From the NCBI RefSeq assembly GCF_013122565.1, contig NZ_CP053258.1: a stretch of 64,000 nucleotides of DNA; one strand, 5' to 3'. This document shows, in pieces, positions 33,929 through 36,979 of the stretch (within the stretch, counting starts at the first letter, position 1; each line of letters starts with the position of its first letter). The notes beneath the pieces are model-generated. The model searched no databases. It had not been told where the DNA came from and was given only the letters and a program-made list of their open reading frames with translations. This DNA comes from Escherichia coli (lineage in GTDB: Bacteria > Pseudomonadota > Gammaproteobacteria > Enterobacterales > Enterobacteriaceae). A program made the translations under genes and the position numbers.

Positions 33929-36900
33929 ATGCAGGTCAGCAGAAGGCAGTTCTTTAAGATCTGCGCTGGCGGTATGGCAGGCACCACGGCAGCGGCACTG
34001 GGTTTTGCACCCAGCGTAGCACTCGCGGAAACCCGGCAGTATAAACTGCTGCGCACCCGCGAAACCCGTAATACCTGCACCTATTGTTCCGTAGGCTGTG
34101 GGCTGTTGATGTACAGCCTCGGTGACGGAGCAAAAAACGCCAAAGCATCTATCTTCCATATCGAAGGCGATCCGGATCACCCGGTCAACCGCGGTGCACT
34201 TTGTCCGAAAGGCGCTGGCCTGGTGGATTTCATCCACTCCGAAAGCCGTCTGAAGTTTCCGGAATACCGTGCGCCAGGTTCTGATAAATGGCAGCAAATC
34301 AGTTGGGAAGAGGCGTTTGATCGCATCGCCAAACTGATGAAAGAAGACCGCGATGCTAACTACATTGCGCAAAACGCCGAAGGCGTGACTGTTAACCGCT
34401 GGCTCTCTACCGGGATGCTGTGTGCTTCCGCATCGAGTAACGAAACCGGCTATTTAACGCAAAAATTCTCCCGCGCGCTGGGTATGCTCGCGGTCGACAA
34501 CCAGGCGCGTGTCTGACACGGACCAACGGTAGCAAGTCTTGCTCCAACATTTGGTCGCGGTGCGATGACCAACCACTGGGTCGACATCAAGAACGCCAAC
34601 CTCGTCGTGGTGATGGGCGGTAATGCCGCTGAAGCTCACCCGGTCGGGTTCCGCTGGGCGATGGAAGCCAAAATTCACAACGGCGCGAAGCTGATTGTGA
34701 TCGATCCTCGCTTTACGCGTACGGCGGCGGTAGCTGACTACTATGCCCCTATTCGTTCCGGTACTGACATTGCTTTCCTGTCAGGCGTATTGCTGTACCT
34801 GCTGAACAATGAAAAATTCAACCGCGAATACACCGAAGCCTATACCAACGCCAGCCTGATCGTGCGTGAGGATTACGGCTTTGAAGATGGCCTGTTCACC
34901 GGCTATGACGCGGAAAAACGCAAGTACGATAAATCCTCCTGGACTTACGAACTGGACGAAAACGGCTTCGCCAAACGCGATACCACGCTGCAACATCCGC
35001 GCTGCGTGTGGAACTTGCTGAAACAGCACGTTTCCCGCTACACGCCAGATGTGGTTGAAAACATCTGTGGTACGCCAAAAGACGCGTTCCTGAAAGTCTG
35101 CGAATACATCGCAGAAACCAGTGCTCACGATAAAACTGCCTCGTTCCTGTATGCCCTCGGCTGGACGCAACACTCCGTTGGTGCGCAAAACATTCGTACG
35201 ATGGCGATGATCCAGCTGCTGCTCGGCAATATGGGGATGGCAGGCGGCGGCGTTAACGCCCTGCGCGGTCACTCCAATATTCAGGGGCTGACGGACCTGG
35301 GGCTGCTGTCGCAGAGCCTGCCAGGTTACATGACGCTGCCAAGCGAGAAGCAGACCGATCTGCAAACCTACCTTACCGCCAACACGCCAAAACCGCTGCT
35401 GGAAGGCCAGGTAAACTACTGGGGCAACTACCCGAAATTCTTCGTCTCTATGATGAAGGCCTTCTTTGGTGATAAAGCGACGGCGGAAAATAGCTGGGGC
35501 TTTGACTGGTTGCCGAAGTGGGATAAAGGCTACGACGTCCTGCAATACTTCGAGATGATGAAAGAAGGCAAGGTCAATGGCTATATCTGCCAGGGCTTTA
35601 ACCCTGTTGCCTCATTCCCGAACAAAAACAAAGTGATCGGTTGTCTGTCGAAACTGAAGTTCCTCGTCACTATCGACCCGCTGAACACTGAAACCTCTAA
35701 CTTCTGGCAGAACCACGGTGAGCTGAACGAAGTTGACTCGTCGAAGATCCAGACCGAAGTGTTCCGTCTGCCATCGACCTGCTTCGCGGAAGAGAACGGT
35801 TCAATCGTTAACTCAGGTCGCTGGTTGCAGTGGCACTGGAAAGGTGCGGACGCCCCGGGGATTGCGCTGACTGACGGCGAGATCCTCTCCGGTATCTTCC
35901 TGCGCTTGCGCAAGATGTATGCCGAACAGGGTGGCGCAAACCCGGATCAGGTGCTGAACATGACCTGGAACTACGCCATTCCGCATGAGCCGAAGTCGGA
36001 AGAAGTGGCGATGGAGAGCAACGGTAAGGCGCTGGCCGATATTACCGATCCGGCAACCGGTGCGGTTATCGTCAAGAAAGGTCAACAACTTAGCTCGTTC
36101 GCCCAACTGCGCGATGACGGTACAACTTCCTGTGGTTGCTGGATTTTCGCCGGTAGCTGGACGCCGGAAGGCAACCAGATGGCACGCCGTGATAACGCCG
36201 ATCCGTCTGGCCTCGGTAACACGCTGGGCTGGGCATGGGCATGGCCGCTTAACCGCCGCATTCTGTATAACCGCGCCTCCGCAGATCCGCAGGGTAACCC
36301 GTGGGATCCGAAGCGTCAGTTGCTGAAATGGGACGGCACTAAGTGGACCGGCTGGGATATTCCGGACTACAGCGCAGCGCCTCCGGGTAGCGGCGTCGGG
36401 CCGTTTATCATGCAGCAGGAAGGCATGGGGCGTCTGTTTGCCCTCGATAAGATGGCGGAAGGTCCGTTCCCGGAACACTACGAGCCGTTTGAAACGCCGC
36501 TGGGAACTAACCCGCTGCATCCAAACGTTATCTCGAACCCGGCTGCACGTATCTTTAAAGACGACGCCGAAGCATTGGGTAAAGCCGATAAGTTCCCGTA
36601 TGTCGGAACCACCTATCGTCTGACCGAGCACTTCCACTACTGGACCAAACACGCGCTGTTGAACGCGATTTTGCAGCCAGAGCAGTTTGTGGAAATCGGT
36701 GAGTCGCTGGCGAATAAACTTGGCATTGCCCAGGGCGATACCGTGAAAGTCTCCTCCAACCGTGGCTATATCAAAGCCAAAGCGGTGGTGACCAAACGTA
36801 TTCGCACGCTGAAAGCGAACGGCAAAGATATCGATACCATCGGTATTCCGATTCACTGGGGCTATGAAGGCGTTGCGAAAAAAGGCTTTATTGCCAATAC

Positions 36901-36979
36901 GTTGACGCCATTCGTCGGTGATGCGAACACGCAGACGCCGGAGTTTAAGTCCTTCCTTGTGAATGTGGAAAAGGTGTAA
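33929..36979 (+). CDS. fdoG: formate dehydrogenase-O major subunit, selenocysteine-containing (in-frame UGA at 34514-34516)
   Basis: ORF-track ORFs 33929..34516 and 34565..36979 are in the same frame; Tat signal (RRQFFKICAGG); the UGA is followed by HGPTVASLAPTFGRGAMTNHW; total 1016 aa. Confidence 0.93.
34517..34560 (+). promoter_or_regulatory. probable SECIS hairpin directing Sec insertion at the fdoG UGA
   Basis: immediately 3' of the UGA; local inverted repeat agcaag-t-cttgct within cacggaccaacggtagcaagtcttgctcc; bacterial SECIS elements lie directly downstream of the UGA. Confidence 0.55.

Follow-up and report, generated by a model that had tools for sequence, protein, structure and literature searches.

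The in-frame UGA of fdoG in an Escherichia coli genome is followed by a SECIS_3-type hairpin and is very probably a selenocysteine codon

Does the TGA that interrupts fdoG in this stretch of Escherichia coli DNA (64,000 nt, called the window here) end the protein, or is it a selenocysteine (Sec) codon? The E. coli formate dehydrogenase (FDH) genes with an in-frame UGA include fdoG, fdnG and fdhF. In the list of open reading frames the gene appears as a 195-aa ORF (33929..34516) and an 804-aa ORF (34565..36979), both on the plus strand, and an earlier note on this DNA had claimed that the two parts share a frame, that the TGA is immediately followed by a sequence bearing the inverted repeat agcaag-t-cttgct, consistent with a bacterial SECIS element, and that the TGA is the Sec codon of formate dehydrogenase-O and not the mark of a pseudogene. 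The starts of the two ORFs lie 636 nt (212 x 3) apart, so both segments are in one frame, and translation of 33929-36979 in that frame gave 1017 codons with codon 196 as the sole internal stop and a terminal TAA, which bears out the first of these claims. The frame runs from ATG 33929 to TAA 36977-36979 with TGA 34514-34516 as its lone interruption, and past this TGA it stays open for 820 further codons. The protein context read around codon 196 is ARV-U-HGPTVASLAPTFGR, and RefSeq has the 33929-36979 span as one CDS across the TGA. The coordinates of all features are collected in Table 1.

Table 1. Features of the fdo region and of the SECIS element, in coordinates of the window.
Feature	Position	Strand	Basis or remark
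fdhD, accessory sulfurtransferase, divergent	32899..33735	-	TIGR00129, 339.2 bits; annotation
fdoG CDS, formate dehydrogenase-O alpha subunit	33929..36979	+	1016 codons including Sec196, plus TAA
Putative Tat signal peptide region, MQVSRRQFFK...SVALA	33929..34027	+	SRRQFFK motif read in translation
Predicted selenocysteine codon 196, in-frame UGA	34514..34516	+	context ARV*HGPTVA as in K-12 fdoG and fdnG
Bacterial SECIS element, SECIS_3 type	34511..34569	+	Rfam covariance model
Whole hairpin with lower stem	34519..34559 (about)	+	minimum-energy fold
Apical minihelix GGUAGCAAGUCUUGCUCC, predicted SelB-binding	34528..34545	+	nt 15-32 from U of UGA
fdoH, FDH-O beta, iron-sulfur subunit	36992..37894	+	TIGR01582, 475.9 bits; RefSeq syntenic gene
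fdoI, FDH-O cytochrome b556 subunit	37891..38526	+	NF007924, 453.3 bits
fdhE, formate dehydrogenase accessory protein	38523..39452	+	NF002925, 602.4 bits

Against the NCBIfam profile of FdnG/FdoG-type alpha subunits (TIGR01553; cut-off = 814.2), the product scored 271.4 bits upstream of the TGA, over profile positions 1-194, and 1278 bits downstream of it, over positions 196-1009. FdoG thus matches this family over its full length, and the TGA fills exactly one profile position. In a protein alignment the same codon falls on the non-standard residue 196 in chain A of the FDH-N structure 1KQF and on its counterparts in 1H0H and 6SDR (Desulfovibrio, labeled 'selenocysteine-containing' by the depositors), and by this alignment the UGA is homologous to the active-site Sec position of solved formate dehydrogenases. 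The N-terminal region with the SRRQFFK motif is presumably a twin-arginine (Tat) signal, as established for FdnG and FdoG.

The fdoI product scored 243.6 bits on the FDH-N gamma model NF007558 compared with its 453.3 bits on NF007924, and the operon was therefore assigned to fdo and not to fdn. It differs from fdn in its FDH-O type cytochrome b556 subunit and in the flanking fdhD and fdhE; synteny and the type of gamma subunit both place the alpha gene with fdoG rather than with fdnG. The arrangement fdhD / fdoG-fdoH-fdoI-fdhE is the canonical one, found in the annotation of K-12 and of further E. coli; of 5426 complete E. coli genomes, 5425 have a match to the region. Between yiiG and fdhD, the window has two inserted genes that are absent from K-12.

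A scan of the 64 kb window at Rfam gathering thresholds returned a sole SECIS match: the plus-strand segment 34511-34569 scored 84.3 bits on SECIS_3 (RF01989), whose gathering score is 63 (E 1.1e-19), and covers the model in full (positions 1-59 of 59). This lies well above threshold and upholds the reading of the downstream sequence as consistent with a bacterial SECIS. The SECIS_2 type, whose consensus resembles the fdhF sequence, was tried and rejected: the window sequence scored 28.1 bits, below the gathering score of 70, and the element is therefore of SECIS_3 type. The hairpin follows directly on the UGA, and the ORF that contains the two runs on past them. The apical minihelix folds as ((.(((((...))))))) about 11 nt past the UGA, with U17 (34530) unpaired and G23 U24 (34536-34537) in the loop. 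In the minimum-energy fold, the apical loop is GUC (or AGUCU) closed by an A-U pair, and the lower stem joins 34519-34526 with 34551-34556 and 34558-34559; the Rfam consensus register of the lower stem is shifted relative to this fold and gives A.C and A.G mismatches here.

These coordinates amend the description of the repeat. The inverted repeat agcaag-t-cttgct does exist, at 34531-34543, and belongs to the apical stem of the SECIS; it begins 15 nt past the TGA rather than immediately after it, its supposed 1-nt loop is sterically impossible, and it is only the tip of the hairpin at 34519-34559. Structure prediction of the RNA after the UGA, which had been proposed as a check, gave a hairpin with the apical stem, at an energy that is marginal against shuffled sequences. 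The 47 nt from the UGA had a z-score of -1.6, and the 43-nt hairpin and its 18-nt tip each had one of -2.1; among 200 shuffles, 8-9 folded as well as the native hairpin. By itself the thermodynamic stability of the hairpin is unremarkable, marginal and not significant. Since stability is insufficient as proof, we based the assignment on the covariance model and the comparative data.

The closest comparison is K-12 fdoG (b3894), which has the same length (3051 nt), 99.05% nucleotide identity to the window gene (29 differences over 3051 nt), a UGA that is also codon 196, 66 identical nt around it, and an operon likewise arranged as fdhD / fdoGHI-fdhE. The codon differences over the whole gene comprise 26 synonymous and 1 nonsynonymous, the latter giving K689 in the window FdoG and S689 in K-12; strain PS10-3 also has K689, and its FdoG protein is identical to that of the window. 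The Sec196 codon and SECIS of fdoG are already known and are unchanged from K-12.

The paralog fdnG of K-12 is more distant (overall identity to the window fdoG 77% in amino acids and 75% in nucleotides), and its SECIS is also of the SECIS_3 (RF01989) kind; the Sec196 of its product is verified in crystal structure 1KQF. An alignment with fdnG had been suggested as a test of the SECIS, and in it the 66 nt around the UGA match K-12 fdnG save for one synonymous base upstream of the UGA. The longest exact run common to the two genes is 71 nt, from 34511, and the runner-up is 36 nt. In codons 196-212, 17 of 17 codons are identical between fdoG and fdnG, compared with 460 of the 765 identical-residue codons outside this segment (Fisher p = 2e-4). 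The exact run and the codon identity together suggest a constraint at the RNA level on the segment around the UGA.

The SECIS of fdhF (formate dehydrogenase-H) is the prototype dissected by experiment. Alignment with it, likewise proposed beforehand, found the start UGA-CAC-GG, U17, G23 and U24 conserved at equal distances, and the fdhF sequence also folds with U17 unpaired, G23 U24 in the apical loop and the same spacing from the UGA as in fdoG. The protein motif ARV-U-HGP is common to the fdhF product and the window FdoG. The two elements differ in the apical stem (GGUUGCAGGUCUGCACC in fdhF, GGUAGCAAGUCUUGCUCC in the window fdoG, where one more apical pair is possible) and in the lower stem. 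The determinants of SelB recognition in E. coli are described in a review as a 17-nt apical hairpin (nt 15-31) set 11 nt from the UGA, with a bulged U17 and G23/U24 in the loop, the lower stem contributing less (PMC8659212). The positions of U17 and of G23 U24 in the window agree with the determinants of that description. A search of the open-access literature for an experimental paper on the fdoG or fdnG SECIS returned passing mentions only.

To collect related elements, one representative genome per species was scanned for a degenerate pattern that spans the UGA (GCNCGNGTNTGACAYGGNCCNNNNGTNGC), which yielded at least 120 loci. Because the pattern preset the TGA and some of the 5' arm (U17 among it), these positions are conserved in the scanned set by construction; variation was allowed in the 3' arm and in the loop. 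All matches listed (at least 120) are FDH alpha genes, 109 of FdnG/FdoG type and 11 of FdhF type, and in all of them the frame stays open for 26 codons past the TGA (in three loci, to the end of the fetched DNA). The FdnG/FdoG-type matches listed comprise 69 distinct 62-mers, which were aligned without gaps and on which the Rfam structure was imposed.

Among these 69 distinct sequences from the matches listed, 99.6% of the apical helix (34528-34535 with 34539-34545) is paired. Two of its 7 pairs, 34531/34543 (GC 53, AU 10, GU 6) and 34534/34540 (AU 47, CG 18, GC 4), show compensatory changes, with no unpaired cell at either. Both covarying pairs lie at synonymous codon positions within the palindrome reported earlier (34531-34543). 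Total pairing in the same set is 92%, compared with 26-50% when the 3' partners were slid by 1-3 columns, and 0 of 500 shuffles reached the observed covariation score. G23 and U24 of the loop are invariant among the matches listed, U24 being a third codon position. The lower helix is 86% paired in the 69 sequences, with zero double-sided changes. Conservation and covariation among the matches listed hence back the apical helix, and the claim of a SECIS hairpin finds its comparative support there.

The SelB/SECIS mechanism is established knowledge for E. coli and is applied here to fdoG from its sequence. Immediately past the UGA, the mRNA would fold into the SECIS hairpin, and the C-terminal domain of SelB, which would carry GTP and Sec-tRNA(Sec), would bind the apical minihelix. 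The Sec-tRNA would thereby be tethered beside a ribosome with the UGA in its A site, selenocysteine insertion would compete with release factor 2, and a further 820 codons would then be translated. In the resulting enzyme, Sec196 would ligate the active-site molybdenum of FDH-O, with FdoG as the catalytic molybdopterin subunit. Delivery of Sec-tRNA(Sec) to the UGA by SelB-GTP, in competition with RF2, has been described (PMC8124441; PMC4513850, a study of fdhF recoding), and Sec insertion depends on the supply of selenium (PMC4513850). For the fdoG of the window, SelB binding to the apical minihelix is predicted from its sequence and fold, and the identity of the element with that of K-12 points to both SelB binding and Sec insertion.

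Whether the cell has the machinery for this bears on a reading in which the UGA is passed by a near-cognate Trp or Cys tRNA without Sec, giving an enzyme of low activity, as would arise if the strain had no working Sec machinery or was grown without selenium. The tie of Sec insertion to selenium supply (PMC4513850) would allow it, and no sel gene is visible among the annotated neighbours in the 64 kb window, in which no tRNA or tmRNA was found either. Yet K-12 selA-selB DNA, used as the query, was matched over its full length in 5425 of the 5426 complete E. coli genomes, which serves as a proxy for the source genome, and selA, selB, selC and selD are probably present there. Moreover, the SelB determinants are perfectly preserved, and their upkeep is not expected without SelB, so that their preservation argues for its presence. 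We regard read-through without Sec as highly improbable.

A second reading takes fdoG for a pseudogene with a nonsense mutation at codon 196 and a coincidental hairpin, as the mechanical split of the gene at the TGA might suggest. Against it, the same TGA stands in K-12 fdoG, fdnG and fdhF and in all matches listed (at least 120 loci elsewhere, where the scan pattern preset it), the SECIS_3 match has an E of 1e-19, and the span is a single CDS in RefSeq. Past the TGA, the 25 codons that differ from K-12 comprise 24 synonymous and 1 nonsynonymous; on this ratio the 820 codons after the UGA must be translated, which excludes a pseudogene, and the pattern of codon differences indicates that purifying selection acts on fdoG 3' of the UGA. 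This reading is extremely improbable and in effect refuted. That the locus holds two independent genes, for a 195-aa N-terminal protein and for an 804-aa protein from the ATG-initiated ORF listed at 34565, is vanishingly improbable and is refuted by the continuity of homology across the TGA (TIGR01553 positions 1-194, then 196-1009), the solved FDH-N alpha subunit being a single chain across this point and the 16 codons from the TGA to ATG 34565 being conserved as HGPTVASLAPTFGRGA, with single-residue variants only, in the FdnG/FdoG-type relatives among the matches listed.

Decoding of codon 196 as selenocysteine, and not as a stop, in a normal fdoG of an E. coli-like genome is by contrast almost certain in our assessment, and none of the results speaks against it. 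The frame, the SECIS_3 match, the paralogs, the covariation and the selection downstream all back the earlier identification of the TGA as the expected Sec codon of formate dehydrogenase-O in an intact gene. The locus matters for annotation quality alone: a naive ORF caller splits fdoG and may leave a false pseudogene or a two-gene label, and recognition of the Sec codon and its SECIS restores the correct 1016-residue selenoprotein. The UGA of fdoG is textbook E. coli, and no new biology follows from it.

Two further observations concern the extent of the conserved block. The 62 nt of the SECIS are unusually frozen, being the same in fdnG and fdoG even between Enterobacterales genera as far apart as Yersinia, Photorhabdus and Providencia. 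The 62-mer of the window is identical in at least 17 loci of other Enterobacterales genera and of the congener E. albertii; among the matches listed, the genera that carry it include Photorhabdus, Providencia, Yersinia, Citrobacter, Enterobacter, Klebsiella and Superficieibacter. Over the flanking 150 nt of these loci (at least 17), mean identity is 78% upstream and 86% downstream. It is conceivable, though we think it very unlikely, that the block is frozen beyond what SelB binding demands, for example because fdnG and fdoG undergo recurrent gene conversion or because the RNA has a further regulatory role, and that the imperfect lower stem of the enterics may tune recoding efficiency. Plain purifying selection on the SelB site and on the protein sequence is the alternative, and the evidence fits either. 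The lower stem itself is imperfect in the enterics and near-perfect in Pseudomonas.

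The interval between yiiG and fdhD, the accessory sulfurtransferase gene that is divergent from fdoG (formate dehydrogenase-O alpha subunit), was found to hold a two-gene cassette on the minus strand (Table), whereas in the comparison strain K-12 the cassette is absent and yiiG directly adjoins fdhD. When the protein products were searched with PADLOC, the GHKL-type ATPase returned weak TmtA-like matches only (best E-value 5e-6), and the TPR protein returned no match. Window positions 20000-44999 were covered at ≥80% in one piece in only 258 of the 5426 complete E. coli genomes in the collection. 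The cassette looks like an accessory island, possibly with a role in defence.

Comparison of the window with the same collection of complete E. coli genomes gave no near-identical counterpart. The best match, strain wlxctx60, was colinear with positions 8091-56999 at only ~98.0% identity over 49 kb; fdoG alone was 99.2% identical to its best match. The window may thus belong to a lineage that has been little sampled, or to a near relation catalogued under a different name. At codon 689 of fdoG, all three bases differ between the window and K-12 (b3894), where the codon is TCT (Ser). Strain PS10-3 also has the lysine, and its entire FdoG protein matches the window's without a difference. Ser689 of K-12 may be the unusual state.

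The 5' region of fdoG was matched by the Rfam model FdoG1_thermometer (RF02778), an RNA thermometer of the fdoG 5' UTR, at 32 bits (E-value 3e-5), below the gathering score of 50 for this family. The stretch that aligns well spans the ribosome-binding site and the start of the coding region, so the match may reflect mere coding-sequence conservation. Two matches to naRNA4 / CssrE (RF02564), a repeat-derived family of nucleoid-associated RNAs, were above threshold.

Table. Window coordinates of the cassette, the fdoG codon and the RNA family matches.
Feature	Window position	Strand	Details
Two-gene cassette	28445-32588	-	between yiiG and fdhD
Cassette ORF, 768 aa	28445-30751	-	TPR_19 repeat
Cassette ORF, 611 aa	30753-32588	-	GHKL-type ATPase: HATPase_c_3 and HSP90-like middle region
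FdoG1_thermometer (RF02778)	33760-33958	+	below threshold
fdoG codon 689	35993-35995		AAG (Lys)
naRNA4 / CssrE (RF02564)	10329-10406	+	76.4 bits
naRNA4 / CssrE (RF02564)	19251-19321	-	74.4 bits
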